Below, one piece after another: positions 1,930 to 13,739 of a stretch of DNA of 18,501 nt. Source of the DNA: a candidate division WOR-3 bacterium (lineage in GTDB: Bacteria; Hydrothermota; Tepidihabitantia; Tepidihabitantales; Tepidihabitantaceae); contig JAUWNN010000029.1 of assembly GCA_030612625.1 (NCBI GenBank), forward strand, positions 1-18,501. Direction: 5' to 3'. The notes beneath the pieces were generated by a model. It saw only the letters and a program-made list of their open reading frames with translations, was not told the DNA's origin and did not search any database. A program made the position numbers and the translations under genes. Positions within the stretch are counted from its first letter, which is position 1. The number at the start of each line of letters is the position of its first letter.

Positions 1930-2460
1930 GAAAAACCTAGTCCTGCTGCCCGACTATCGCCGGCCCGAGATGCAGGGCCGATACCCGTTCCTCGGGCCGG
2001 AATGCTCGGAGCCGGCGGCCAAGTAGCCATAAAGTCTCTGATGTGAATCGAGGGCGGCCGCAAGGCCGCCTTCGCTCTCGGGCAAGAGAGGGTGGGCGGT
2101 CAGCGGCAGGCGGTCAACTGAAGCGGCCTCGAGCCGGTGCCGGAGATGCCGGAGGCGATCAGCGGCTCCCGCCGTTCAGTCTTCAGGATTGCCCCGCTCG
2201 CGCTGTGAGCTGTTGACGGTGAACTGTCAGTGGATTGCGGCGCGCGGAGATAGGTATTGTGTCCCCCTATCTCTCAGGTTCTTCGACGGCCTGGCTGAGG
2301 TGTTCATCGGTTGCCGCATTCGCATCCTGCCCGGGCTGTGGGAAGGTAGGCAGGTGGCCCACCTTGAAGGCGGGCACAGCGGCTACATCAACCGGTCAGG
2401 AAAGATGGTCTGGGAGCCGAGGGAGTAGCAAACCCGGACAGAACCCAACTTGGCTTGCCC

Positions 2461-3351
2461 TCACTGGCCATCGAGTTCGGCACGCAGCGAATCAACGACT
2501 GCGCCGAAGCCTCCACGGTAGCCACCTGAAGTCGGGTGGCTGGCCTTGATGAAGGCTATCACATCTCCGTCCTCTTCGTGTCTGAAGTGGACGATTGAAC
2601 CGTCAAGCCTTGGCATGCTCTGCGGGTCAAAGTTGATGGTCCATTCGTCATTGGTCCAAGGGTGGATGTGTCTTCCGGGGACGCCGCGAGCGGCCCGGTA
2701 GATCCAGTTCGTCCAAGGCCAGCCGAAGCATACCACGGCTCTCGGTCTGAAAAGCGTTACCAGCTCAAAGGACTTGCGACCGCAGTTGTCCAGTTCAGCC
2801 GCGCTTGGCATACCGGTGCGAGGTGGCGTTTTGCAGTGAGAAGCGTTCAGCGCAACGACGCTGCCAAGGTAACCTTGCTCGCATGCGTGAGCGAACCCTG
2901 GATGATTCGGAACCACATGCACGTTATTTCCCAGAAGGTCTCGCCGGTCGCCTGCGGCCAGTAGGATGCCCAGAGCAGCTCCGGTGACGCTGTCTTCGTA
3001 CCAGCCAGCTTCTATCTTGTCGACTCCGGGTTCAGCTTCGTGGTCATACCAATGAAGGTGACGGTTTGCGTATGTTGCATCGTCTGGGTCCTCGCCAACG
3101 TGCCAGCAACCTGCGTCATGCAGACCCCCGAGACCTGGGTTGATGCCGACGAAGAATATATCCTTCCGGCCTCCCGCTGGCGAGTGTGGTTCGCCGTAGA
3201 TGGCCTCGGGAATGTACTCTGGCAGATCTAGTCTGAGGTGCTGTCGCTGGCGCATTAGCGCCCTGCACTCTCCGCCGACCCAGCAAGGGCACTCTCGTCG
3301 GAACCAGCGGTACAGGACCTTCTCTTCGTGCGTCAGGTCGTCCCAGTTCAC
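2461..3351 (-). CDS. uracil-DNA glycosylase superfamily protein, MUG/TDG-like (GINPGL motif), Cys-rich N-terminus
   Basis: 296-aa ORF with GTG start. Preceded by AGGAGG plus a 5-nt spacer (rc of 3353-3360). Motif A FFVGINPGLGG matches the family-2 UDG GINPGL signature. A later VVPNHPG resembles the motif-B HPS/NPSG region. Several Cys (CPCWVGGEC...) may form a metal or Fe-S site. Assignment rests on motifs only. Confidence 0.5.
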   Translation of the reverse strand: MNWDDLTHEEKVLYRWFRRECPCWVGGECRALMRQRQHLRLDLPEYIPEAIYGEPHSPAGGRKDIFFVGINPGLGGLHDAGCWHVGEDPDDATYANRHLHWYDHEAEPGVDKIEAGWYEDSVTGAALGILLAAGDRRDLLGNNVHVVPNHPGFAHACEQGYLGSVVALNASHCKTPPRTGMPSAAELDNCGRKSFELVTLFRPRAVVCFGWPWTNWIYRAARGVPGRHIHPWTNDEWTINFDPQSMPRLDGSIVHFRHEEDGDVIAFIKASHPTSGGYRGGFGAVVDSLRAELDGQ

Positions 3352-3441
3352 CGATACCTCCTTTGGTATAGATGCACGGCCGAGTATCGCTCAGGCAGGG
3401 GCGGAGTCAATAGGCTCAACGCGCTACGGGTTGTCCGTTGG

Positions 3442-4689
3442 TTACAGCGCGTGGGGACTGCCGTCTTCGAGCAGCACGGTCTGGCCGAACGCCTCGGCGA
3501 AGGCCTGGGGGTGCTCGGTGTGGATTGGGAATAGCTGGGCGGGTTTCAGCGTGCCGATGACCCGCTTGAGCAGGCCGAACGGCGCGTGGCCCGAGACGTG
3601 CCGGATTTCGAACTCGACGCTCTCACGCCCGCACCAGCCCTTCAAGCTCTTGAGATGGCGGTCGAGGTACCCGGGCCACATCGAGTAAATGAGCCGGGCG
3701 TCGTGCAACAGCCCGTGCTTCTTGATTTCGGCCTGCATGTTGGGCCGGAACAGCATTACCGATTTCCCTCGGCCCGTGCGCAGGGCTTCCTCGTAGATGC
3801 GTCGGCCGTAGTACGGGCCGGCGAGGGCAGCGTTGCCCGCATCACACAGCCTTGAGCGCATCCCCCAGGGAAGGTAGATGCGAAGGTCACTTCTCCTTGG
3901 GCTGGGCAGCTTCTTGCGGCCAGCCTGCCGGAGAGCCCGCAGTAGTTCCGCGGTATACAGGTCAATGACCATCGTTCGTCCGGCCCGCTTGGTCGCCTTG
4001 TAGAACGTCACGAACCGGTCGATGTTCTGGGCAGCGTAGAACGCGAGGACCAGCCCGGTTGCGCTGCGGATGCGCTCGACCAGCTCGTTCTCAAGCTGCT
4101 TCTCGGTCTTCGCGGGATGGTCGGCATCTGACCTGCCGGCGGTCGTGCCCTCGATGACCAGGGCTTCCAGCGGTCTCGGGCAGTCCCTGAGCAGGCGAGG
4201 CAGAGCTCCGGGCTTGCGGCCGTGGTCGCGCAGGTCGCCGGTATAGAGCAGGCGCTTGCCGCCGCATTCGACGAGCAGGGCGTGGGCGTCGTAGGCCGAG
4301 TGGTCGACGAGGAAGGGTGTGATGCGGAACGGGCCGACTTTGAAGAGCTGGTAGCTTTCGTAGGGCACGGCCTGCTTAGGCACGCGAACGGGCATGAACG
4401 GTTCGGCTGCCTTGAGCATCAGGAGTGACTCGCGGCCAAGGAAGACCGGGACGGTGTCGGCCAAGTGGTTCCACAGCCCGTAATGGTCAGCGTGGGAGTG
4501 GGAAACGACTACCCCGAGCAACTCACCGGCTTTCGGTGTCAGGTTGAGCGAGGCGGGGAGGTTCGGCTGCTCGCCCTTCCTCAGGTCCAACGGCGCACCA
4601 ATGTCGAGCAGGATGCGTTGATCGCCAGTGGCTAACTCAACGCAGTTGCCACCGACCTGCCGCGCGCCGCGGTGGATGGTGAGGCGCAT
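3442..4689 (-). CDS. beta-CASP family MBL-fold nuclease (RNase J / TTHA0252 / Artemis-like)
   Basis: HxHxDH motif SHSHADHYG. N-terminus MRLTIHRGARQVGGNCVELATGDQRILLDIG matches the beta-CASP N-terminal pattern (M.I...GGAREVGGS...LLDCG). The longest ORF starts at 4719 (MASRKGLGSR-), so the start could be 4719 or 4689. TAA stop at 3442-3444. Confidence 0.75.
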   Translation of the reverse strand: MRLTIHRGARQVGGNCVELATGDQRILLDIGAPLDLRKGEQPNLPASLNLTPKAGELLGVVVSHSHADHYGLWNHLADTVPVFLGRESLLMLKAAEPFMPVRVPKQAVPYESYQLFKVGPFRITPFLVDHSAYDAHALLVECGGKRLLYTGDLRDHGRKPGALPRLLRDCPRPLEALVIEGTTAGRSDADHPAKTEKQLENELVERIRSATGLVLAFYAAQNIDRFVTFYKATKRAGRTMVIDLYTAELLRALRQAGRKKLPSPRRSDLRIYLPWGMRSRLCDAGNAALAGPYYGRRIYEEALRTGRGKSVMLFRPNMQAEIKKHGLLHDARLIYSMWPGYLDRHLKSLKGWCGRESVEFEIRHVSGHAPFGLLKRVIGTLKPAQLFPIHTEHPQAFAEAFGQTVLLEDGSPHAL

Positions 4690-4697
4690 CCGGCTGC

Positions 4698-5612
4698 CTA
4701 AGCCCTTCCGCGAAGCCATTTGTCTCTGAGTGTGCTGGGTTTGATTCCTGCCGGGTCCTTTATCATCGGCGTCAGGCGGCCGGACATCTCGCTGCCGTAG
4801 CGGACCATCATCTCGTTGATGTGCCGCTTCACCTTCAGTTCGGCTCCTCTGCTACCGTACTCGAACACGAAGAGTCCGACGCGCCTGTCAATTGCTGTTG
4901 GTTCAGGGAGGCTTTGGCCAAACAGCGAGTTCATGGTGCGAACGTATTTGCCATACTGAGAGAGTATCCGACGGTAGTTCTTGTCGAGTTGGCTGTCATA
5001 GCGCTGCAACTGCCATATCACGCCGTGCGGTTTCGCATCGAATGCTCTCAGTCGTGGGTCATCCCAGCGCTTTGCCTCGAAGAAGGTCAGTCTCTGGTTT
5101 CGCTTGTCGAGAAGGACGAAGTCAATGGCGTCCCGTGAGGCAGCCCTGTCGCTGAAGGTCACCTCGATGTCCAGAACGACAACATCGCTCTCGATGTCGC
5201 TGGCGTGGGAGTATGTCCACATGGCCGAGAGACCGCCACGCTCGCGTGTTCTGTGGAGATCAACGTTACCCTTTATGGCCTCGTATCCATCAACGAAGCT
5301 CTCGAATGGCTCTATCGTGCCCATCTTCTTTTCTGTGACGTAGTCAGGGTCACGAGGTTGCCTCTTGGCTGCGAAAGCGAACTTCACGTTGGTCAGGAAT
5401 TCCCCGCTAGGCAGGTAGCCGAACAACTTCTGGCCAGCGTAGTAGAAACTCACCTGGGATCCTCTGCCTCTTATCGTTGGTAGCACAACGCCCCGCTTGA
5501 TGTCACCCAGCAGACGGTCTTCGAATAGCGGCTCCCTCTTCAGGGTTTCGACTTGCCCATCCGCCAACTCCCGGCTGAATGTCGGCGTCGATCTTCCCTT
5601 CGACGTACCCAC
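4698..5612 (-). CDS. PD-(D/E)xK-like nuclease-fold hypothetical protein
   Basis: 304 aa, from GTG at 5612-5610 to TAG at 4700-4698. The GTG overlaps the upstream TAG stop by 1 nt (TAGTG). Preceded by AAGGAG 7 nt upstream. Candidate catalytic core VLLD-x11-FFEAK (hhhD...ExK). The 597-aa ORF in the track (4698..6491) is this gene fused to an out-of-frame Arg-rich shadow of the upstream gene. Confidence 0.6.
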   Translation of the reverse strand: MGTSKGRSTPTFSRELADGQVETLKREPLFEDRLLGDIKRGVVLPTIRGRGSQVSFYYAGQKLFGYLPSGEFLTNVKFAFAAKRQPRDPDYVTEKKMGTIEPFESFVDGYEAIKGNVDLHRTRERGGLSAMWTYSHASDIESDVVVLDIEVTFSDRAASRDAIDFVLLDKRNQRLTFFEAKRWDDPRLRAFDAKPHGVIWQLQRYDSQLDKNYRRILSQYGKYVRTMNSLFGQSLPEPTAIDRRVGLFVFEYGSRGAELKVKRHINEMMVRYGSEMSGRLTPMIKDPAGIKPSTLRDKWLRGRA

Positions 5613-7027
5613 TAGCAACTCCTTTCGTCTACAACCCCGCCCAGCCATCCCATCACCGCCCAGGTGGCTTCGAGGTCTTCTCGGTTGTAGAGCATTATCT
5701 TGTCCATTGTCTCCTTCCTCAAGTCTTCGTCCTCGGTTTCGACCGCCTTGATGTACTCGGCCATTGACCATGCGCCGTTGGATTCGGGCAGGGTGCGCTG
5801 ATACCCTGCGCGCTTCTCGACCAGCTTGATGCTGTAGCTCGGGTCCGGCAGGACCACCGCTTTCTTTGTGATAGGCAGCAGGTCGCAGAGGTTCTTGAGT
5901 ACACGCACGCCGACGCCGGCCGGGTCGCCGAACCGCTCGATGTACTTCCTGACGTGGGTCTTCTCGTACGGCGCCCAGTGCACGAACGGGATGTCGCCGA
6001 GGCAGGCGAAGATCCCGGCCGCGTTGTCGAGGAACTGCATCCAACCGTTCCTGTCGCCATCCGCCCCGAAGTCCGCGACGGCCTGGAGGCAGGGCTTCGG
6101 GTTCACGCCAAAGACCTGCGTGCCCCAGAGGTATATCTTCTCGGTCTCGTTCAACTGCGGCGGGAGGCCTTCGAGGTCGAACATCACGTAGTTGTCGCTG
6201 GCCGGGATTCCGGGCCGCGACAGCACGATGACTTCGCCGGTCGTGAAGGCGCGGGCGTGGTTGAGTATCGAGGTCGCCTTTGACCCGACCCTCTGCATGC
6301 GCGTCCCAACCGGCCGCTTCAGTTCGCTCAGGGCGTCCTTCGTGAACCGTGATGGAAGGTCCCGGTAGCTCCCAATGCCCATCTCGCGGAATGCGCTTGC
6401 GGTTCCCTGGTCCACATCGGGCAGCACCGCCGGGTCCTCGGATGCTACGGCCTTGAGCCAGCAGTGGTCCCAGTAGGCGCAACCGCCGCACTTGGACCAG
6501 CCGACCGGGATGTAGTCGGACAGGCCGTTGTCGAGGACCGCCTGCATGCGTTCGAGGGTCGCCAGTGCCTGGCGACCCTGGTCGTAGGGCAGCGGTACGA
6601 TATCACCGGTTCCGGCCACTACTTCGATTCCGGCCGGCGGATGGCCGAAGGTGGATTCGTACAACCAGCCGTACAAGTCCAACTGCTCGAGGATCTCCTC
6701 GTGCTCGCTGACGCGCCGCGCCACCTTGCAGTCACGCACGCGGTAGCCGTCGCCGTAGCGTACAAGGAAATCGGGCACGCCGACGATGGTCACGTCCGGG
6801 GAAAACGGGGCATTTGCGGTCAGGAGCGGCTGGTACAGAACCGGCGTGCTACTACGCACTGCGTCCCGGGTTGCTTCGCTCCGTTCCTGGAACGGGACCC
6901 TGGAAAGGTCGGTTACGTCCGTGAGTGTCGCAAGGTAGGCGGCCTCGTGCCTGTTGCCGAGTGCCTTGAGTACCTGGTCAAATGCACCGGGCTCGGCTTC
7001 TGCGAGCCCCAGCCGTCTGCAGTCCAC
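5612..7027 (-). CDS. TM0106-family putative RecB/Cas4-like nuclease (PD-(D/E)xK + Fe-S Cys + C-terminal RNase H-like domain)
   Basis: 471 aa, GTG start. N-terminal Cys (MDC...) plus a C-x2-C-x5-C cluster (CGGCAYWDHC) as in Cas4. PDFL...RDCK...EQLDLY (D, DxK, QxxxY) RecB-family motifs. C-terminal VMFDLEG...YNREDLE consistent with an RNase H-like exonuclease fold. Overall architecture matches the TM0106 family (TIGR03491) from memory. Confidence 0.75.
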   Translation of the reverse strand: MDCRRLGLAEAEPGAFDQVLKALGNRHEAAYLATLTDVTDLSRVPFQERSEATRDAVRSSTPVLYQPLLTANAPFSPDVTIVGVPDFLVRYGDGYRVRDCKVARRVSEHEEILEQLDLYGWLYESTFGHPPAGIEVVAGTGDIVPLPYDQGRQALATLERMQAVLDNGLSDYIPVGWSKCGGCAYWDHCWLKAVASEDPAVLPDVDQGTASAFREMGIGSYRDLPSRFTKDALSELKRPVGTRMQRVGSKATSILNHARAFTTGEVIVLSRPGIPASDNYVMFDLEGLPPQLNETEKIYLWGTQVFGVNPKPCLQAVADFGADGDRNGWMQFLDNAAGIFACLGDIPFVHWAPYEKTHVRKYIERFGDPAGVGVRVLKNLCDLLPITKKAVVLPDPSYSIKLVEKRAGYQRTLPESNGAWSMAEYIKAVETEDEDLRKETMDKIMLYNREDLEATWAVMGWLGGVVDERSC

Positions 7028-7102: not shown

Positions 7103-7153
7103 CTAGCGGTTCACGTTCAGCAGCGGGGTCAGCTTCTGGTCGAAGGGCATCAT
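7103..7153. repeat. R1: direct repeat copy of the SPFH gene 3-prime end (pseudo-terminus ending TAG)
   Basis: Minus-sense ATGATGCCCTTCGACCAGAAGCTGACCCCGCTGCTGAACGTGAACCGCTAG encodes MMPFDQKLTPLLNVNR*. One mismatch to R2 over the 45-nt core. 34/36 identity to the authentic gene end R3. Confidence 0.9.
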
Positions 7154-7252
7154 TGGCATCGGTAACGCTAACCGCTTTTCTCGGCATGGGTGCTTGGGCA
7201 ACACCAGTGGTTTTCCAACAGCCGAGGGCGGATTTTCCTTCACCATGCCTTA

Positions 7253-7280
7253 TTCCTACCCGAATCCGGGTGAGTGTCAA
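7253..7280 (-). promoter_or_regulatory. M1 promoter module: TTGACA-N16-TAGGAA(T), 6 nt upstream of a 47-aa ORF that ends in R1
   Basis: Minus-sense gcTTGACActcacccggattcgggTAGGAAtaaggcATG. The spacer carries CCCGG/CCGGG half-sites. Homologous to M2 and M3. Confidence 0.5.
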
Positions 7281-7316
7281 GCGGGGCAGCTTGAACCGGG
7301 AGTACGCCGTTGGCGG

Positions 7317-8981
7317 TCAGCGATGCGCGGCGTGGATTGAGTTGAACCTCGCAACGGCCCGTGTGACCTCCGGGCTCGCCCTGGTGAAGCGTTCACCGTG
7401 ACGTGCTCGTCTGACCAGTCCTCTGAATGTCCTTATTACGTGTTCCTTCTCTTCTGACGAGACCCAGAAGGGGTAAGGAAGTCGCTCGAAGTCCTTGCTT
7501 TGGATATTCTTGGTGTGGTTGATGACTTGCTTCAGGATTCTTGAGCACAAGGGTGTGAGCGTCCATCCCAGTATGAAGTACGACTCATCCTCGGCGATAC
7601 CCTCACGCAGGAAGGCACAGGGTGCTCCACTGTCCAGAACATAGCCTTCAGGTAGATACTTCACGTTCAGTCTTGGCGCGATCAACTGCCAGGTCAGCCC
7701 GCTACGCTTGAAGTAGCGCTGTCCTCCTACGCCGTGCAAGTACCAATTGCCATTCTTCTTGAAGGTCAATACTGCGTCGCCATCATCTTTCCAGTATATC
7801 GCATAGGATGGAGGAGCATATACGATGCCGTTCGTCGCCTTGTTGTAGTAGCTGTAATCCGGATGCGGGAGCTTGACGGTCTTCGGTGTCTTCCGAGCGA
7901 CTATCCTGACGTTGCGCTTGGTGGCGCCAACCGCTTCGAGCCGCCTTATTTCCATCGTCTTCCCGGGCGAGAGCTTTCCCAGTCTTGCTCTCGCCAGTTC
8001 TTTCTTCAGGGTGACGGGGTCCTCGTAGTACTCGAACCGGTAGGGTTCGCTGACTGCTTCGTTTTCGATGCGGCGGACGAAATACTCGTTCTTGCCGACC
8101 GTCATTCCACTTGTCGCAACCACATACTGGGCCAGGCGCGGGCCTTGGAAGTACCCGGTCAGTTCCGGCGTGATGCGCCAAGACAGGTTGTCGGTAAGCT
8201 CGATTGTATCTGAGCCAATCCGCTGTCCGTTTATCTCAACGGCAGCGGCTTTCCCATTCTTGCGGAAATCCAGGACAATCGTCGGCTGCTGGGTTTCCTC
8301 AGAGAATTCGGCGAGGTCTTTGATTGACGTCTCGCCATAGTCCATGAGCAGCCGCCGCAAGCCGCGCATGGTTCTTATTGTCAGGAACGTATCGGAGCAG
8401 ATAAACCGCAGCACACCGTTATCCCTCAGGAGGTCCAGGCACTTCACAATGAAGAACGAGTACGTTTCCTTCTTGATTTTCTCTCCGTTTCTGAACCCGT
8501 ACTTCCGGTCAAGCAAATCCTGGATGTCGGGGTCGAGAGTGCCGCCAAACGGAGGGTTGCCCACAATGTAACTGAAGCCAGGAGTCGGACCGCTCTGCCA
8601 GTCCAGTTGGCGTTCGACGGACGTCCCGCCGAGCGAGCTGCGGAAAAAATCGCCGAGCTCGAAGTTGTGATATTCCGGTATCGGTCCCCACCGAGATTCT
8701 ATTCTGGCCAGGCACTTCGCGTACAGTTGTCTGTCGATTTCAACCCCGAAGACATTCCTGCCGAGTACCTCAGCCAACCGTTGGTTTGTACTGCCGGTAT
8801 ACAGGGGCAGGAAGCTTTCAATCAGAGGAATCACGAACGAACCGTCGCCCATGCTGGGTTCCAGTACCCTGTCGGAGCGTCTGAAATGCAGGTCTGAAAG
8901 GAGCTGCCTGGCGAGAGGCTCAGGCGTCATGAACTGGCCAAGCTGGCGCTTCCGGGGTCTTCTGGTCTTGGTTTCGCTCAC
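7317..8981 (-). CDS. N6-adenine DNA methyltransferase, gamma-class (Eco57I/TaqI-like) with C-terminal target-recognition region
   Basis: 554 aa. Motif X QFMTPEP, motif I LEPSMGDGSF, GVEID, motif IV YIVGNPPFGG, in the gamma-class order. The GTG start overlaps the stop of the upstream ORF (GTGA). Confidence 0.85.
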   Translation of the reverse strand: MSETKTRRPRKRQLGQFMTPEPLARQLLSDLHFRRSDRVLEPSMGDGSFVIPLIESFLPLYTGSTNQRLAEVLGRNVFGVEIDRQLYAKCLARIESRWGPIPEYHNFELGDFFRSSLGGTSVERQLDWQSGPTPGFSYIVGNPPFGGTLDPDIQDLLDRKYGFRNGEKIKKETYSFFIVKCLDLLRDNGVLRFICSDTFLTIRTMRGLRRLLMDYGETSIKDLAEFSEETQQPTIVLDFRKNGKAAAVEINGQRIGSDTIELTDNLSWRITPELTGYFQGPRLAQYVVATSGMTVGKNEYFVRRIENEAVSEPYRFEYYEDPVTLKKELARARLGKLSPGKTMEIRRLEAVGATKRNVRIVARKTPKTVKLPHPDYSYYNKATNGIVYAPPSYAIYWKDDGDAVLTFKKNGNWYLHGVGGQRYFKRSGLTWQLIAPRLNVKYLPEGYVLDSGAPCAFLREGIAEDESYFILGWTLTPLCSRILKQVINHTKNIQSKDFERLPYPFWVSSEEKEHVIRTFRGLVRRARHGERFTRASPEVTRAVARFNSIHAAHR

Positions 8982-9685
8982 CTTAGATTCAGTGGGTTCT
9001 GCGTATCAGCAGTTACCTTGCGCCGGGAACTCTTGAGGTACCGGGAGATATCCTTATGGAATCGGGCAAGTGATTCCGCACGGTTGGCGGCCAGGCGTTT
9101 GTTTCCATCCTCCAGCATCGCGTAGAGTTGTTTTACCTTGCGCCTGATGGCTAGTGTTGGGGGTGATGTCCCTTTGGCCATCGCGTCATAGAAGGCGTTG
9201 GCTTTGAGCATTATCTGACCGGGACCGGAGTCAAACGTCATGTAGGAAAGGTAGTCCAGCAAGTCGAGAAAGTAGACCCTGCACGTGATTTCCCTGGTGA
9301 TGTCCATCTTGACCATCAGCAGGTAGTAGGAATCAATCTGGTAGCCTAGGAGTGCCCGCAGCAGCTTCTTCAAAGAGACCATGTTCGGCTGCCCACCTGT
9401 CGTGGTTACGCCCGCCTTGACGTTGACCGGATGGTAGATACCGCCGCACTCCAACCAGAGATCCCCCATGGAGCGCATCCGCCGCTGGCCCCTGCTATCG
9501 CACTGGTGTTTGGTTACATACTTCACGGTCAGCAAAGCAGTAGTTTTCTCGTCCACGAGGTCGGCGATTCGGTGTCCGATTTCCTTGCCTTGTGCGATCT
9601 CGCGGAAGTACCTTTTGCGTACTTCACTGTCCCAGTAGGCCTGGGTATCCCTGCGGATTCGCTTGGCGGTCCTGGCGTCTATCAT
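8978..9685 (-). CDS. putative restriction endonuclease partner (hypothetical 235-aa protein)
   Basis: Translationally coupled (GTGA overlap) immediately upstream of the MTase. Driven by the M2 promoter. No recognisable family motif, so the call rests on gene context only. Confidence 0.4.
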   Translation of the reverse strand: MIDARTAKRIRRDTQAYWDSEVRKRYFREIAQGKEIGHRIADLVDEKTTALLTVKYVTKHQCDSRGQRRMRSMGDLWLECGGIYHPVNVKAGVTTTGGQPNMVSLKKLLRALLGYQIDSYYLLMVKMDITREITCRVYFLDLLDYLSYMTFDSGPGQIMLKANAFYDAMAKGTSPPTLAIRRKVKQLYAMLEDGNKRLAANRAESLARFHKDISRYLKSSRRKVTADTQNPLNLR

Positions 9686-9694
9686 CTTGCTTTG

Positions 9695-9723
9695 TTTCTA
9701 CCCGATTCCCGGATAGGTGTCAA
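9695..9723 (-). promoter_or_regulatory. M2 promoter module: TTGACA-N17-TAGAAA, 9 nt upstream of the REase ATG
   Basis: Minus-sense ccgcTTGACAcctatccgggaatcgggTAGAAAcaaagcaagATG. Leaderless-like geometry. Confidence 0.55.
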
Positions 9724-9746
9724 GCGGAGCGGTCCGCGCAACGCGG

Positions 9747-9804
9747 TCAGCGGTTCACGTTCAGCAGCGGGGTCAGTTTCTGGTCGAAGGGCATTATCAC
9801 GAGG
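9747..9804. repeat. R2: direct repeat copy of the SPFH gene 3-prime end (pseudo-terminus ending TGA)
   Basis: Minus-sense GTGATAATGCCCTTCGACCAGAAACTGACCCCGCTGCTGAACGTGAACCGCTGA encodes VIMPFDQKLTPLLNVNR*. Homology to R3 extends through tatcacga. Confidence 0.9.
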
Positions 9805-9820
9805 AAAACCAGAGACGCTT

Positions 9821-9849
9821 TCCATATTCCTGAGTCCCGAGTCTGTCAA
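9821..9849 (-). promoter_or_regulatory. M3: degenerate third copy of the promoter module (TTGACA-N17-TATGGA) just upstream of R2
   Basis: Minus-sense caTTGACAgactcgggactcaggaaTATGGA. The spacer is similar to M1/M2 (cggga.tc.gg). Confidence 0.35.
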
Positions 9850-10068
9850 TGGTTGGCCGGACGCGAGATGGTGTCCGTGCCTTTCCTGCTGCATCAGGCA
9901 GTTGTAGCGGAGAAGGGGGTGGAAGTCAAGGAGAGAAGGAAAGGATTCAAGGGGTCGAGTGCGCAGAGGGCTGACGGCTCCAGGATGTACGGGACGGCCC
10001 TCCGGCATTCCCCGAGTTGACGAGGTGTGGAAGGTCCAGTGGTCAGGTGAGGGAAAGCGGCAGGCAGA

Positions 10069-11202
10069 CTAGCGGGACGGACGCGGGTCTGGAGGCAGGC
10101 CGGGTTTGATTTCGGAGTAGCGGGTGATGGCGAGGTCTGCGAGGCGGCGAATGAGCTCGGCGGGCTGGTGCCTTGCCACGAGCCGGCTGGCTTCGGCTTC
10201 AACCAGTGCCCGGCGTTCTGTCGAGTCTGGTGCTGAGTGGTCCACGATGTAGCAGGTTTGGCGGACAAGGCCAAGGTACAGCACCTGCTCGCCGGCCGGC
10301 ACCCCAGCCGCGACCGCTTCTCTCTGGACTTCTTCCCATACCTTGGCGATGGCCGCCTCGCGGGCGACCTGGTGCTCCTGGAGCTTTTCCAGCCATTCGC
10401 GGTGCAGCCGGTCTTCGGCCCGCTCAGGCTTGGGCTGCAGTTCGGCCACGGCCGGCAGTTCGTCGAGTTTGCCGGTCATCTCCAGCCGCCGGTGCAGTTC
10501 AATGACCGCGGCCGCTACTTTGTCGAGCGCGGTTTCGGATACGACATTCTCGGCCAGGAGCTTTGAGCGGGCCTGGCTGAGCAATTCCGGCTGTTTGTCC
10601 CGGTCCTTCTTGCGCGTGCGGTTGAGTATGCCCCAGAGTTTGCGGCCGAAGTCGGCAAGGTACTTGCGCTTTGTCCCTGAACCTTCGTCGCCCAGTTGCT
10701 TGATTGTGAAGAAGAGGACCTCTTCGAGCCGGCGGCGCTGAAGCAGCGAGGCGGCGAACTTCTGGGAGCGCCGGATTCTCTTGTCCGGCTCTTCGACCGG
10801 CCGGGCATCGAACCGGCCGGCAACGGTCGTCTTCACGTCGTAGCGGTTCACCTTGTCGGCTATCGGCTTGGGCAGGTTCCTGGTCATGCGTTCGACCACC
10901 TGTCTGGCGGCCTCTTCGATGACCGGCTTGCGGCTGGTGTACGATGCAAGCACGTCAACGACTTCCTCGATTCCGGCCCGGCAGGAGCGGAGGTAGTCGA
11001 GCAGGAAGCAGAGCCTGGGGTTCGGGTTCTTGCCGGCTTCGAGCCGGGCAATCTGCACCCGGGTCGTTTCCGGCCTGCGGCCCATGAGCCGGGCAATCTC
11101 TTTCTGGGTCAGGCCGGCTCGTTTGCGCAGGCCACGCAGGCGCTCGCCAAGCTGACGCCGGAACAGCTTGTCAATCTCACTGGAAGATGCGTCAGAGACC
11201 AT
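10069..11202 (-). CDS. XRE-family helix-turn-helix protein with large charged, coiled-coil-like C-terminal region of unknown function
   Basis: N-terminal LGERLRGLRKRAGLTQKEIARLMGRRPETTRVQIARLEAG is a Cro/C1-type HTH. Start taken at ATG 11202 (MVSDASSSEIDKLF); the longest ORF extends to 11265. C-terminal roughly 280 aa is Arg/Glu-rich with no recognisable domain. Confidence 0.65.
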   Translation of the reverse strand: MVSDASSSEIDKLFRRQLGERLRGLRKRAGLTQKEIARLMGRRPETTRVQIARLEAGKNPNPRLCFLLDYLRSCRAGIEEVVDVLASYTSRKPVIEEAARQVVERMTRNLPKPIADKVNRYDVKTTVAGRFDARPVEEPDKRIRRSQKFAASLLQRRRLEEVLFFTIKQLGDEGSGTKRKYLADFGRKLWGILNRTRKKDRDKQPELLSQARSKLLAENVVSETALDKVAAAVIELHRRLEMTGKLDELPAVAELQPKPERAEDRLHREWLEKLQEHQVAREAAIAKVWEEVQREAVAAGVPAGEQVLYLGLVRQTCYIVDHSAPDSTERRALVEAEASRLVARHQPAELIRRLADLAITRYSEIKPGLPPDPRPSR

Positions 11203-11323
11203 GGCCTGGGTAATTCTAGAGTTACATTGGACTGATGGCAACAGTCGGGGATAACAGCCGGACATTCAGGCGGTTGTGCGAAACCGGGCCGAAATACCTC
11301 TCCAGCCCCCTGGGTGGCTTCCG

Positions 11324-11546
11324 AGATGAAATCCGATTGGACTTCGAAATGGACTTCGAGGCAGAATTCGAGAAGGAGTTTGAAACAGACATCGCACTGC
11401 ACTTTTCCTGACACCTTGAGATGGACGTGGAAACGGACAATGTCCTGGGCAGCGCAGGACACGATTGAAGGCACGTTGTTCTACACAGGAAGAAAGACAG
11501 CGAACGCCAGTTCGAAAGACAGTCCTGAAGGCAGTTCGAAGCAGAC
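11324..11546. repeat. degenerate 12-nt periodic repeats with TTCGAR cores (GANTTCGANNNN x5, plus two 15-nt CAGTTCGAARCAGAC copies)
   Basis: ggacttcgaaat / ggacttcgaggc / agaattcgagaa / ggagtttgaaac / agacatcgcact at 11339-11398. cagttcgaaagacag and cagttcgaagcagac at about 11508-11546. Lower GC than surroundings. Sits in the 560-nt gap between the SPFH gene end and the HTH gene. Confidence 0.6.
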
Positions 11547-11765
11547 CTTGCGCCTGAATTTGAACTAGAGCTTCCAAAGGATGTTGAGCGTGACTTCAGA
11601 CGAAGTGTGAGCGAACTTGGGACACGAGAGAAGAGGGAGAAAGGAACAGGGAGGCTTGGGACACAATCCCAAAGGGAACTGTTTCGAGCGTAGCACCCGA
11701 GCGGAATCAGGCTATGTCCCGGGTCCAGGCCGGTCCGCGGCGATGCCAGAGTAACGAGGCTGGGA

Positions 11766-12674
11766 TTACCTCACATTCAGCAGCGGTGTCAGCTTCTGGT
11801 CGAAGGGCATTATCACGAAAGTGCTGTTCTGGCTGTCCGCGACATTTCTGAGCGCCTTGACATAGAACCAGGTCAGGTAGTTCCGGGTTAAAGAGACAGC
11901 GATGAGCCGGTTTGCGTCCGCAATACCCCGGGCTTCAATCCGCTTTCTCTCGGCTTCTTTTGTTTCCTTGGCCAGGGTGAACTCCATCTTCTGGGCATTC
12001 TGGTCCTCGGCCAGCTTCGACTCGATGGCGTTCATCACGACGTCAGGCAGTTTGACCCGGCGCAGGAGCATCCGCTCCCGGATGACGCCCTTGCCGGTAA
12101 ACGCGACATCCATCATCGAATCGACGACTGTGGTGTAGGCGGCCCGGCCGTCGGATGAGTAAAGTTCGCTTGCGGTGAACCGCGAAGCGGCGTCGCGGAG
12201 CGCGGTCCGGATTGATGGCCGGACAATCTTCTCAACATAGTTGGGCCCGATGTTCTTGTACACCCAGCTTGCCATCTGCTCGTCGAGCCGGTACCAGACG
12301 GTGACGTCGAGGGTCACGGTGAGTCCGTTCGACGCGAGCGCATCGATCGCGTCGTCACCCCTGATTTGTCCTTCTTCGCGCATGCTCGACATGGTGTAGG
12401 CGTTGGTGCGGACGTCCATGAGCACGACGTTGACAATCGGGACTACGATGTTGAGTCCGCTCTGCATCTGGTTCTGGACTTTACCCAGAAGCACCGGGAC
12501 CCCGGCATGGCCGGGCGGGACGATCCGGAAGAACGAAATCCCGAACAGGATTGCCAGGACGACAATTGCGATGATGCCGGCACGCTTGGCATAAAGCCGG
12601 CCTTTGCCGCTTTGCCTGACTGCGACATAAGCGATTATCGCGATAATGGTCAGGATGACTATCAGTCCAAACAT
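11766..12674 (-). CDS. SPFH/band-7 (prohibitin/HflK-like) membrane protein
   Basis: 302 aa. Two N-terminal hydrophobic segments, then an SPFH core (FFRIVPPGHAGVPVLLGKV...). Strong SD aaaaGGAGGtaagATG. The C-terminus ...IMPFDQKLTPLLNVR* (R3, 11766..11824) is the sequence duplicated at R1 and R2. Confidence 0.85.
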   Translation of the reverse strand: MFGLIVILTIIAIIAYVAVRQSGKGRLYAKRAGIIAIVVLAILFGISFFRIVPPGHAGVPVLLGKVQNQMQSGLNIVVPIVNVVLMDVRTNAYTMSSMREEGQIRGDDAIDALASNGLTVTLDVTVWYRLDEQMASWVYKNIGPNYVEKIVRPSIRTALRDAASRFTASELYSSDGRAAYTTVVDSMMDVAFTGKGVIRERMLLRRVKLPDVVMNAIESKLAEDQNAQKMEFTLAKETKEAERKRIEARGIADANRLIAVSLTRNYLTWFYVKALRNVADSQNSTFVIMPFDQKLTPLLNVR

Positions 12675-12741
12675 CTTACCTCCTTTTGGCGGTCATTTGA
12701 ACGCTCTACGCACGACGCATAACGCTTGACGCTAGCCTCCG

Positions 12742-12778
12742 GCGTAGTGCGTAATGCATAAAGCGTAGTGCGTAATGC
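12742..12778. promoter_or_regulatory. two 16-bp direct repeats (GCGTAGTGCGTAATGC) 21 bp apart, between a TTGACA -35 (rc of 12785-12790) and the SPFH start
   Basis: Exact 16-mer at 12742-12757 and 12763-12778. Positioned where the -10 and operator of the SPFH promoter would lie. Confidence 0.4.
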
Positions 12779-12822
12779 GTCTTGTGTCAACTGTCAGGAG
12801 AAAAGCCTGGGATGACCACCGG

Positions 12823-13659
12823 CTACCACACCTTGCCTGTTGAGTGTATCTGCCAGGTGTTGTTCCGGCGTTCAAGGTAGAATCGGATGCCGCGACGGCG
12901 GCCGATTGGGTCCGGGTGGCGCGGGTCGACCGGTTCCAGGTCGATGACGCAGATAGCGAACTCACCCAACACCCGCACCAGTCCGAATCGGAAAAAGAAC
13001 CGGACATCGGGTCTCAGGCTGTCGCTACGCAACTCGGACAGAGTGAGCATAGTGATAGTGTGGTTCCCGAGGCGGAAGGTTCCTTTGTGACTCAGTTCCT
13101 TGCCTACTACCGTAATTGTATCGGGCAATGTGAGACGGCGATGGATTCGTGCGAGACCGGCTGGCGTAATAACGTGGCCGAGTGCGGCTTCAGCCACCGC
13201 TTCGAGTTCAACCATATCGGCACGGCCATATTGGAAGGACTGGTTGAAGATGTTGGAAAGCCACATCAACTGCCAGCCGTCGTCGGTATGGAGCCAGCTC
13301 TGGTACACATAGGCATAGTCGAACTTATTCTCGAAAACGACCCAGGTTGATACATTGCCGCCCATTCCGCGAATGTCCACAACTCTACTGCGTGCCTGGG
13401 TGATGCGGCGGTCCGTGTACCAGGCTGAAAGCGCCGAGTCGAACCGGCTGAATCGTATCTCAGACCGGAATGCAGGCACAAACATCCGGTAGAGTTCCCT
13501 GGTCCTGCCGGCTACCAGTGCTTCAGTGAATTCCTGGGAGCACCGGTCGAGCTGATAATAGGTTTTGGGTTTGGCCGCGCCAGCCGCTAGCGGCCAACAG
13601 CCAATTACCAACAGCCAGCGACCGACCGCCAGCGGCCCACGGCTATAACCATTCAGCAC
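12823..13659 (-). CDS. hypothetical lipoprotein-like or secreted protein
   Basis: 278-aa ORF with lipobox-like LLVIGC near the N-terminus. The annotated GTG start at 13659 lies only 4 nt from the tRNA-Asp 3-prime end, so the true start is probably internal (TTG at codon 17 or ATG at codon 59). Confidence 0.45.
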   Translation of the reverse strand: MLNGYSRGPLAVGRWLLVIGCWPLAAGAAKPKTYYQLDRCSQEFTEALVAGRTRELYRMFVPAFRSEIRFSRFDSALSAWYTDRRITQARSRVVDIRGMGGNVSTWVVFENKFDYAYVYQSWLHTDDGWQLMWLSNIFNQSFQYGRADMVELEAVAEAALGHVITPAGLARIHRRLTLPDTITVVGKELSHKGTFRLGNHTITMLTLSELRSDSLRPDVRFFFRFGLVRVLGEFAICVIDLEPVDPRHPDPIGRRRGIRFYLERRNNTWQIHSTGKVW

Positions 13660-13663
13660 TCAG

Positions 13664-13739
13664 CGGGCCCGACCAGATTTGAACTGGCGATCTTCTGCGT
13701 GACAGGCAGATGTGTTAAACCAAGCTACACTACAGGCCC
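13664..13739 (-). tRNA. tRNA-Asp (anticodon GTC)
   Basis: 76-nt cloverleaf folded by hand. Acceptor GGGCCTG/CGGGCCC. D-stem GTGT/ACAC. Anticodon stem TCTGC/GCAGA with loop CTGTCAC (U33, GTC, A37). 5-nt variable loop. T-stem GCCAG/CTGGT with loop TTCAAAT. Discriminator G. No encoded CCA. Confidence 0.85.

Follow-up and report, generated by a model that had tools for sequence, protein, structure and literature searches.

Displacement of a gene's 3' end by incoming DNA is known from two kinds of bacterial array. The C-terminal regions of rhs genes are displaced via circular intermediates, and the displaced pieces keep parts of the core "of varying lengths" (Jackson et al. 2009, PMC2935791). Effector-immunity modules of V. 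cholerae's type VI secretion system (T6SS) undergo sequential displacement via homology-facilitated illegitimate recombination (Kirchberger et al. 2017, PMC5361080). Here we describe an 18,501-nucleotide (nt) stretch of DNA from a candidate-division WOR-3 bacterium (hereafter the window, meaning the whole stretch that was analysed), in which the 3' end of an SPFH/Band-7 gene recurs as direct repeats heading blocks of restriction-modification (R-M), helix-turn-helix (HTH) regulator and nuclease genes. The hotspot is genuine and its cargo is mostly of the defence type, but what it resembles is the gene-end displacement by recombination that is already known, not a novel sort of mobile element. 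Our preferred reading is successive 3'-end displacement by homology-anchored recombination, as in the rhs and T6SS arrays, and our confidence in it is evenly poised.

Like the rhs and T6SS arrays, the locus consists of a full-length gene followed by dissociated 3' fragments in the same orientation. The fragments keep a variable part of the conserved region, each is followed by different downstream genes, the newest arrivals lie nearest the gene, and there is no integrase. The process proposed for such arrays is homologous recombination via the conserved part, through either circles or an anchor combined with an illegitimate join. The differences lie in what serves as the anchor and what is carried. 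Here the anchor is a housekeeping-type SPFH gene rather than a polymorphic toxin, and the exchanged tip amounts to the last 0-2 codons, leaving the protein essentially unchanged. The payload consists of unrelated R-M, nuclease and HTH regulator genes instead of a toxin tip with its immunity gene, and the pieces of core retained are very short (11-63 nt). The displaced tips are near-identical tails of 15-16 residues, not toxin domains with immunity genes. Given these near-identical tails and the unrelated cargo, the locus works like the rhs/T6SS family without being a member of the polymorphic-toxin systems. The logic has clear precedents; what sets the present case apart is that an ordinary core gene serves as anchor of the displacement arrays, that the tip is trivial and that the cargo is unrelated.

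Three direct copies of the SPFH gene end

All genes in the interval of interest are on the minus strand. The anchor gene and the three long copies of its end are as follows.

11766-12674, minus strand: intact SPFH/Band-7 (prohibitin-family) gene of 302 amino acids (aa), Pfam Band_7 match at E = 6e-26; the homology anchor
11766-11818, minus strand: R3, the functional SPFH 3' end, of which 48 nt (11771-11818) recur in R2; tail GGTAA, giving NVR and the stop
9747-9802, minus strand: R2, displaced SPFH end with stop TGA; left edge 8 nt before ATGCCC; junction confirmed by contig L072 of an independent assembly
7103-7153, minus strand: R1, displaced SPFH end with stop TAG; left edge 0-3 nt before ATGCCC

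The top repeat family that a repeat finder returns for the whole window is a three-copy direct repeat at 7105-7153, 9749-9797 and 11765-11813, with R2 96% and R3 84% identical to R1. Self-BLAST of the window recovers the three repeat pairs at E = 1e-14 to 1e-10. The three SPFH-end repeats described in the initial annotation are therefore real, and their translations and stops are as given there: R3 ends in VIMPFDQKLTPLLNVR with stop TAA, R2 in VIMPFDQKLTPLLNVNR with stop TGA and R1 in MMPFDQKLTPLLNVNR with stop TAG, all three copies being in frame with their own stop codon. Its account of the 45-nt core was likewise reproduced, R1 and R2 differing by 1 nt and R3 deviating at 2-3 positions and having one codon fewer. 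The maximal ungapped pairs measure 48 nt for R3/R2 (11771-11818 and 9755-9802) and 46 nt for R2/R1 (9749-9794 and 7105-7150). R2 has hybrid edges, its 5' edge (TCGTGATA) being shared with R3 and its 3' edge (AACCGCT) with R1.

The SPFH protein has 1641 homologues, the closest of which, like the source organism of the window, belong to candidate division WOR-3. These closest homologues are 81-90% identical, and most have 303 aa and end in LLNVNR; the window gene ends in LLNVR, which is also a natural ending in other WOR-3 lineages. The R3 tail AATGTGAGGTAA equals a natural allele found in locus L023 (AATGTGAGGTAG). R2 is 96% identical to the live SPFH end of another relative, L067, and both stop with TGA. 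A scan of metagenomes for the repeat motif returned five contigs, every one carrying a single-copy end.

The window is metagenome-assembled, so an artefact had to be considered in which the 45-nt sequence common to strain variants with different SPFH downstream regions led to their being chained together. Two contigs that match the window at 100% come from an independent Logan assembly of run SRR12623518. The first, L001, extends to window position 9833 and breaks about 30 nt before R2, as such chaining might suggest. The second, L072, spans window positions 9862 to 8146 and crosses the end of the HTH block, R2, the promoter-like P box and the gene of open reading frame (ORF) 235, so the junction of R2 with non-SPFH sequence is present in an assembly made independently. 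L001 and L072 overlap by 30 nt, as is typical for adjacent unitigs, and a walk through an assembly graph is unable to create a junction that is missing from the reads. Moreover, an ENA contig and a Logan contig agree in showing the two-copy arrangement of a second genome (L002, see below). Because L072 crosses the R2 junction at 100% identity, the repeat arrangement is not an assembly chimera, and an artefactual origin is scarcely credible.

Shorter remnants and broken genes within the blocks

From the SPFH gene outwards the order of the island is R3, the HTH block, R2, P, ORF235, a methyltransferase gene, Rm, P', L5', R1 and the nuclease operon. Beyond the operon follow about 360 nt without assignment, R0, spacer B, a terminator hairpin and a remnant of an FAD-flavoprotein gene, and then a radical SAM gene whose G+C content is 47%. 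The repeats and their nesting are thus read directly from the DNA. They include two shorter remnants of the SPFH stop region that were absent from the initial annotation (7309-7322 and 2096-2106), and the small features of the array are listed here.

9682-9730, minus strand: P, promoter-like box (TTGACA-17-TAGAAA, with a CCGG..CGGG spacer) reaching the ATG of ORF235; forms a repeat with P'
7309-7322, minus strand: Rm, remnant CGCTGACCGCCAAC (SPFH stop and start of the native spacer B); 13/14 match to R0 of the window and to R0 of L002
7240-7287, minus strand: P', second copy of the promoter box, being the native promoter of an LVIVD-repeat gene; 77.5% identical to P and within the L002 alignment
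7154-7246, minus strand: L5', truncated lipoprotein-like gene of the LVIVD-repeat type, of which the first ~31 codons are left; homologous to the 5' end of the L002 LVIVD gene
2096-2106, minus strand: R0, 11-mer CCGCTGACCGC, identical to the R2 end with its post-stop bases; at the start of the native right flank, beside the hairpin

The L002 equivalent of R0 is CCGCTGACCAC, which is present both at copy 2 of the SPFH end and at the right flank of that genome, the A/G position covarying within each genome. With moderate confidence, Rm (14 nt) and R0 (11 nt) may be taken as remnants of the SPFH stop region and SPFH end, respectively. Both are short, and words containing CGCTGACC are frequent in this GC-rich DNA, so remnants of 10-11 nt need caution. 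The methyltransferase ORF terminates in the CGC-TGA of Rm, overlapping its stop.

Two further observations concern the SPFH stop. Two unrelated cargo genes borrow it as CGC-TGA, namely the window methyltransferase (7317-7322) and a BrnA antitoxin in L002 (16019-16024); the window methyltransferase (554 aa) aligns only with residues 1-556 of a 601-aa homologue. The heptamer TGACCGC (SPFH stop and CCGC) occurs 10 times in the window against 3.7 expected, with none of 200 shuffles reaching 10. Its sites include 2096-2102, 2110-2116, 7313-7319 and 9743-9749, and four are at block junctions. This excess may reflect microhomology used at the joins.

Another direct repeat of 49 nt, P/P' (9682-9730 with 7240-7287; E = 4e-4), flanks the two R-M genes, its copies being 77.5% identical. 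P-like boxes also lie upstream of ORF235 in L066 and L067 and upstream of the LVIVD gene, which has a Pfam LVIVD match, in L002. The promoter call for P was made by eye, and a consensus promoter scan did not call it. A 108-nt alignment that includes P' matches L002 12070-12176 (z = 32). Downstream of P', L5' runs in frame into R1, and the two form a chimeric ORF of 47 aa (7103-7246). The sequence just upstream of R1, comprising P' and the start of this ORF, is strongly homologous to the promoter and 5' end of the L002 LVIVD gene, which there follows a displaced SPFH end. The R-M block therefore terminates in a broken chromosomal gene and not in the terminus of an element.

The chimeric ORF raises the question of whether displaced ends are functional, for example as small peptides in which an SPFH C-terminal tail modulates SPFH assembly and is kept by selection. 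The ORF of 47 aa that R1 closes does possess a promoter-like box as well as an ATG, and every copy retains frame and stop codon. However, the N-terminus of this ORF is merely the LVIVD gene stub, the only in-frame start of R2 is the M of MPFDQ, and copy 2 of L002 lies directly after a stop codon. The substitutions are too few for a test of selection. We consider such a function very improbable.

Empty, intermediate and alternative states in related genomes

The comparison loci (RELATED ARRANGEMENTS) were L002/L003, L067, L066 and other close WOR-3 relatives. An empty site is present in JGI_Cruoil_03_51_56 (L004-L007), where 3 nt separate the SPFH stop codon from that of a convergent FAD-flavoprotein gene; Fe-S and fumarase genes come after the latter. 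L070 and L067 have the SPFH stop followed by a 23-nt spacer and then a perfect terminator hairpin, AGGGCGGCC-TTGC-GGCCGCCCT. The SPFH end is single-copy in L004-L007, L008, L070 and L071. The counterparts of this native right flank lie at the far end of the island in the window.

2051-2095, minus strand: native right flank, consisting of spacer B and the terminator hairpin GGCGGCC-TTGC-GGCCGCC (hairpin 2051-2072); homologous to L002 16020-16075, the hairpin being found also in L066, L067 and L070
1943-2026, plus strand: remnant of the FAD-flavoprotein gene, its last 27 codons (LLPDYRRPEMQGRYPFLGPECSEPAAK and the stop), beginning 13 nt after the radical SAM stop codon

The positions of the hairpin and the FAD remnant indicate that the variable island of the window spans from 11765 down to approximately 2075, a length of 9.7 kb between SPFH and the terminator hairpin. 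No gene of the operon behind R1 (block 1) lies near SPFH in any related locus, and the four-gene operon is therefore island cargo and not a native neighbour. The initial annotation had envisaged an empty site with SPFH followed directly by that operon. Empty sites do exist in relatives, but in them SPFH converges on the FAD gene across the hairpin.

The FAD remnant resembles what a mirror-image event on the FAD side would leave, namely a displaced 3' end, and the contig stops short of any intact FAD gene; 3' remnants of the FAD gene are found in L066 and L067 as well. The adjacent radical SAM gene (439-1929), of the B12-binding type (DUF4070), lies in a segment of 47-49% G+C, against 56-65% elsewhere.

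L002 and L009, whose SPFH is 90% identical to that of the window, carry a 5.2-kb island between SPFH and the same hairpin, which is followed by an intact FAD gene. Two independent assemblies (L002 and L003) give the order as SPFH, copy 1 of the end, a gene for a 325-aa protein, copy 2 (ending in MPFDQKLIPMLDVNR and the stop), a P box and the LVIVD gene. Beyond the LVIVD gene are more genes, including toxin-antitoxin genes, and then the 11-mer remnant, spacer B, the hairpin and the FAD gene. Different cargo between two copies of the motif, which the initial annotation had named as a thing to look for in relatives, is thus found here in the form of the 325-aa protein. The two copies in L002 are homologous from ~18 nt before ATGCCC to ~28 nt beyond the stop codon, forming a diverged pair of 65-90 nt. 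Homology running ~28 nt past the stop is what would be expected for alleles of one locus.

The 325-aa cargo protein itself (L002 11007-11984) has no Pfam, NCBIfam or PADLOC match. By eye it shows a D...(I)YEFK motif, which suggests a PD-(D/E)XK nuclease. Its stop codon is in frame with the displaced SPFH end and directly abuts it.

The 1.1-kb contig L067 comes from the study that also produced L002. Its live SPFH end stops with TGA, which is otherwise confined to displaced copies (R2 and L002 copy 2) and L070. Its SPFH gene is followed by the hairpin, a 35-codon FAD remnant, a P box and ORF235 at 89% nucleotide identity, with no HTH block. This arrangement indicates that the R-M genes occur behind SPFH without the HTH block. 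The proposal that the HTH block was the latest arrival fits L067, where an R2-type TGA end precedes the same R-M genes and the HTH block is absent. The same leader and R-M genes are also present in L066, behind different sequence. In other close relatives, a peptidase M14, peptidase S8 or ABC transporter gene directly follows SPFH. Extra copies of the SPFH end occur only in the window and L002 among 48 species-representative loci.

One further case was noted in L055 (WOR-3, SZTDM bin 15.1), where an orphan ORF of 81 codons (9902-10147) has its last 48 codons 67% identical to the SPFH C-terminus and ends in PMLNVR and the stop. No intact SPFH gene lies within 10 kb upstream of this fragment, which could be either a decayed gene or a displaced end that lies beyond a far larger insertion.

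Proposed successive displacement of the SPFH 3' end

We propose that the repeats are recombination scars at a hotspot between convergent core genes, bounded by SPFH on one side and by the terminator hairpin and FAD-flavoprotein gene on the other. Incoming DNA from a related WOR-3 strain would carry the conserved 3' part of SPFH together with the donor's downstream region. The donor SPFH sequence would pair with the resident gene as a homologous anchor, and the far end would join from a few to ~60 nt before the resident stop codon. SPFH would keep working with a donor-supplied end, while the resident end and its downstream genes would shift one step away. Read in this way, the oldest layer would be the native flank headed by R0. 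The nuclease operon headed by R1 would come next, then P, the R-M genes, P' and the LVIVD stub headed by R2, and the HTH block headed by R3 would be the newest. We infer both the order of the oldest steps and the recombination pathway, which might be a RecA-type anchor with end-joining or the integration of a circle.

Several observations support displacement. Each copy of the SPFH end heads a distinct block that resembles an alternative SPFH downstream region: R2 with the R-M genes resembles L067; Rm, P' and the LVIVD piece resemble L002; and R0, spacer B, the hairpin and the FAD remnant are the native flank. The blocks hold broken chromosomal neighbours, observed directly as P' with ~31 LVIVD codons and as the FAD 3' remnants. 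An independent event with unrelated cargo is found in a relative, in two assemblies (L002/L003). As in displacement arrays, the intact SPFH gene is followed by 3' fragments of variable length in the same orientation: the window has R2, R1, Rm and R0, while L002 has copy 2 and its own R0. The differing left edges of the displaced copies agree with the partial cores described for rhs arrays (PMC2935791), the R3 tail is a natural allele (L023), the cassettes have no sequence in common at their right ends, and the window, ~25 related loci and viral contigs yielded no recombinase. The SPFH sequence that these displaced copies keep measures at least 63 nt in L002 and 53, 48, 14 and 11 nt in the window. 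Simpler and alternative states are likewise seen in the relatives: the empty site (L004), SPFH followed by the R-M genes (L067), the 325-aa cargo (L002) and the other neighbours (L056, L071, L070 and L008).

Some points weigh against this proposal. R1, R2 and L002 copy 2 start within 18 nt of one another in a 900-nt gene, which is tighter than random illegitimate joins would give; this clustering may partly be survivorship bias, because long duplications are unstable and joins after the stop leave no repeat. The lengths of the repeat pairs are alike (48, 46 and, for P/P', ~40-49 nt), which might indicate a fixed-length mechanism. No mosaic donor tract was demonstrable in the body of the SPFH gene, where divergence is inseparable from variable constraint along the protein. 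The informative arrangements come from one window, one second genome and two ~1-kb contigs, and the search for a recombinase covered the window, ~25 related loci and viral contigs, not the rest of the genome.

Two lines of argument were set aside in the course of the analysis. A fixed-length "ruler" (48, 46 and ~45 nt) was not relied on, the L002 pair being 65-90 nt long. A mosaic or breakpoint signal in the SPFH body was not used as proof of a donor tract, the same region being variable in all comparisons.

Search for a recombinase and the case for site-specific integration

Scans with Pfam, NCBIfam and PADLOC found no integrase, resolvase, transposase or insertion-sequence (IS) ends among the window genes. 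Precomputed Pfam annotation, inspection and tblastn found no recombinase within 10 kb in ~25 WOR-3 SPFH loci. tblastn with XerD and gamma-delta resolvase queries gave no match in any of the fetched loci, which is a weak negative. The repeat motif had no match among the 2.9 million viral contigs of IMG/VR, in which an SPFH profile finds only distant jumbo-phage homologues (37% identical), and a viral origin of the motif was rejected on these grounds. No tRNA or other RNA target lies inside the interval, the sole tRNA gene, for tRNA-Asp (13663-13739), falling outside it. The initial annotation's description of a serial-insertion hotspot with no integrase, transposase or IS ends detectable accordingly held, the window scans being negative and the relatives showing empty and alternative states.

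That annotation had read the geometry as serial site-specific integration into a gene 3' end. The SPFH end would then be an attB site, at which small integrase-less cassettes, comparable to cis-mobilisable elements or satellites and carrying a replacement end, were accreted in tandem by a tyrosine recombinase acting in trans, its gene lying on a helper element or in another part of the genome. We regard this as rather unlikely, although several features speak for it. The gene-3'-end geometry is classic, with direct repeats derived from the gene end bracketing cargo in both the window and L002 and with the end restored, stop codon in frame, each time. R2 is a hybrid whose 5' edge is that of R3 and whose 3' edge is that of R1, and the close starts of the three long displaced copies, all within 18 nt, would follow naturally from a fixed site. 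There are also two independent lineages with different cargo and one empty site.

The direct repeats of the gene end therefore stand, but the remainder of the site-specific reading is weakened by the edges of the repeats, the ends of the blocks and the lack of an integrase-bearing version in the ~25 loci and the viral contigs. The left edges of the displaced copies differ, at -18 (L002 copy 2), -8 (R2), -3 to 0 (R1) and ~+40 (Rm and R0) relative to ATGCCC. Those of the long copies (-18, -8 and -3/0) are compatible with a single site between 0 and +40, and the identity block of R2/R3 (-8 to +40) has hardly any overlap with Rm and R0, whose starts lie ~40 nt inside the core; both comparisons rest on few events. 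The right ends of the cassettes have no arm-like or other sequence in common, and the 170 nt upstream of R1, R2 and L002 copy 2 are mutually unrelated, with no shared arm sequence. An R-M "element" would need to end in a promoter and the 5' stub of a chromosomal gene, and the unit would need differing left flanks elsewhere, which do occur (L066 and L067). The nested P/P' repeat would require a separate explanation. Neither the window nor the sequence within 10 kb of SPFH in the ~25 loci yielded a recombinase, and the motif is absent from the viral contigs.

Integrase-less cis-mobilisable elements (CIMEs) and their tandem accretion at a gene 3' end are known, for example, at the fda site of streptococcal integrative and conjugative elements (ICEs). 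The terms CIME and accretion occur in passages of PMC6323972 and PMC7563491. The locus resembles CIME accretion in having direct repeats of a gene 3' end around recombinase-less cargo, a tandem array and a restored gene end. Unlike CIME accretion, there is no cognate integrase-bearing element at the site in the relatives examined, the boundaries vary, and the blocks hold stubs of chromosomal genes and are only 2-2.6 kb long.

The array was also compared with integrons, with which it shares the ordered addition of small cassettes at one site, older ones being pushed distally. The integron-like reading offered in the initial annotation fails, however. No intI is present beside the array, which adjoins SPFH. 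The repeats do not fold in the manner of attC sites: as single-stranded DNA, R1, R2 and R3 gave -2.9 to -6.9 kcal/mol on both strands, with z between -1.9 and +1.1 relative to shuffled sequences. In both the R-M block and the HTH block a promoter-like box lies immediately upstream of the block's own genes (P by eye, that of the HTH gene by promoter scan), and the repeat is the end of a coding gene. A looser analogy remains, in which the SPFH 3' end across the stop codon would be the dedicated attachment site of a cassette-capture system and an unrecognised recombinase, its gene lying at another place in WOR-3 genomes, would assemble small, self-promoted defence cassettes behind a core gene. 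Such a system would be a functional analogue of the integron, with a coding gene end in place of attI and attC; we consider it a long shot.

Insertion with long target duplication

Insertion of R-M units with long target duplication was reportedly described by Nobusato in 2000. Cases in a later survey include 46-bp repeats overlapping a gene 3' end (Furuta et al. 2010, PMC2853133). At the present locus this reading would involve in-situ insertion by break and fill-in, duplicating a target of ~46-49 bp with no donor SPFH end. Of the options listed in the initial annotation it is the closest, and the shared features are these: no mobility genes, direct repeats of ~46-49 bp, a position at a gene 3' end and a sequence that is single-copy in the empty genome. 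The repeat pairs measure 48, 46 and ~40-49 nt, the last being P/P', which brackets precisely the R and M genes. Comparable duplications of 46-47 bp at gene 3' ends surround R-M units that have no mobility genes (PMC2853133). Measured against the criteria of Furuta et al. (2010), the R-M block contains a confirmed M gene and a probable R gene (ORF235), is 2.6 kb long (below 20 kb) and lacks mobility genes; its repeats exceed 30 bp (46 nt for R2/R1 and ~40-49 nt for P/P'), and the SPFH end is single-copy in genomes that lack the insert.

Unlike in target-duplication units, however, the repeats have diverged (77-96% identity), and the upstream copy carries a distinct natural allele. The R3 tail (GG TAA, giving NVR and the stop) is a natural SPFH allele, found in L023, and not an arbitrary insert, which points to a donor-supplied copy in the HTH event. 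The L002 pair is likewise diverged and spans 65-90 nt. The site has also accepted cargo other than R-M systems, namely the HTH block and the 325-aa protein, and several events are stacked. Target duplication as the general explanation is distinctly improbable, although it and displacement may be two ways of looking at the same process.

Cargo of the island

The blocks that would have been stacked by successive displacement carry the following genes.

9803-11765, minus strand: block 3 (HTH block), with a 563-nt leader (11203-11765), the HTH gene (10069-11202) and a 266-nt tail
7317-9685, minus strand: R-M cargo, with ORF235 (8978-9685), a putative restriction enzyme, and a type II gamma-class N6-adenine methyltransferase of 554 aa (7317-8981)
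2461-7027, minus strand: block 1 cargo, a four-gene nuclease/repair-like operon assigned by profile scans and absent from all related SPFH loci, comprising the next four entries
5612-7027, minus strand: TM0106-family RecB/Cas4-like nuclease with an RNase_H_2 domain
4698-5627, minus strand: ORF of 309 aa with a weak Shedu SduA_C match (E = 0.023)
3442-4719, minus strand: beta-CASP metallo-beta-lactamase (MBL) protein
2461-3351, minus strand: UDG-superfamily-like protein

The HTH block encodes an XRE-type HTH protein of 377 aa (Pfam HTH_31, E = 1e-9). Its ORF is open from 11265, and alignment with two clusters of homologues places the true start at M22. These two clusters, the only homologues, lie in other contexts without SPFH, and no homologue was found in plasmid or phage collections. 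The AlphaFold2 (AF2) model is all-helical (predicted local distance difference test score, pLDDT, 64.6) and has no significant fold match in the PDB. That this protein might be a hidden recombinase or a plasmid Rep protein was considered and rejected: it has an XRE-type HTH domain only, its model is all-helical and without a fold match, and neither plasmids nor phages yielded a homologue.

The leader of the HTH gene (11203-11765) contains CT-rich motifs of the type CTGTCTTTCG, and a 12-nt periodicity is clear in the homologous locus L062 (640-1030). The HTH promoter is overlain by an operator-like palindrome, which reads TGTAACTCTAGAATTAC in the window; in L062 it is perfect over 20 nt and reads ATGTAATTCTAGAATTACAT. 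These motifs and the palindrome could be binding sites of the HTH protein or iteron-like repeats.

The methyltransferase of the R-M block has Eco57I and N6_Mtase matches in Pfam and MTase_II matches in PADLOC. ORF235 has 598 homologues across phyla and is paired with the same methyltransferase in L068, and on the basis of this conserved pairing it is probably the restriction enzyme. The family appears horizontally widespread, the 598 homologues occurring in Chloroflexi, Planctomycetota, Gammaproteobacteria and other groups. L068 (8001-14130) and L069 represent another organism from the same sample, SRR12623518, with an ORF235-methyltransferase pair that is 63% identical. The pair in L068 is followed by a methyltransferase gene and then by an XamI-type R-M pair, and no direct repeats flank the homologous R-M pair there.

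The block 1 operon matches no PADLOC system and is a candidate defence or DNA-repair module. The listed ORF of 597 aa at 4698-6491 extends too far and runs into the nuclease gene.

On the other side of SPFH, the tRNA-Asp gene (13663-13739, minus strand) lies directly upstream of a gene of 278 aa and unassigned function that precedes SPFH (12675-13739 region). Relatives have three extra genes between the homologue of this 278-aa gene and SPFH, encoding a Big_7/beta-helix protein, a PDZ protein and a 343-aa methyltransferase, which indicates that the upstream side of SPFH has been rearranged as well.

Significance

Many defence islands lie at hotspots without recognisable mobility genes, and the process by which they fill is poorly understood. 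The locus described here is an unusually legible record, with up to five nested gene-end leftovers, a neighbouring gene's stub and pieces of the gene that flanks the island on the opposite side, and its relatives display empty, intermediate and alternative states. If a trans-acting recombinase proved to be responsible after all, the locus would establish a novel attachment site together with a family of very small defence cassettes that lack an integrase. On our preferred reading of successive displacement, the record suggests that the short conserved end of a core gene can act as a homology anchor for the integrase-free stacking of accessory and defence genes from different strains. It would thereby extend the displacement logic from polymorphic-toxin loci to ordinary core genes and to the uncultivated phylum WOR-3.

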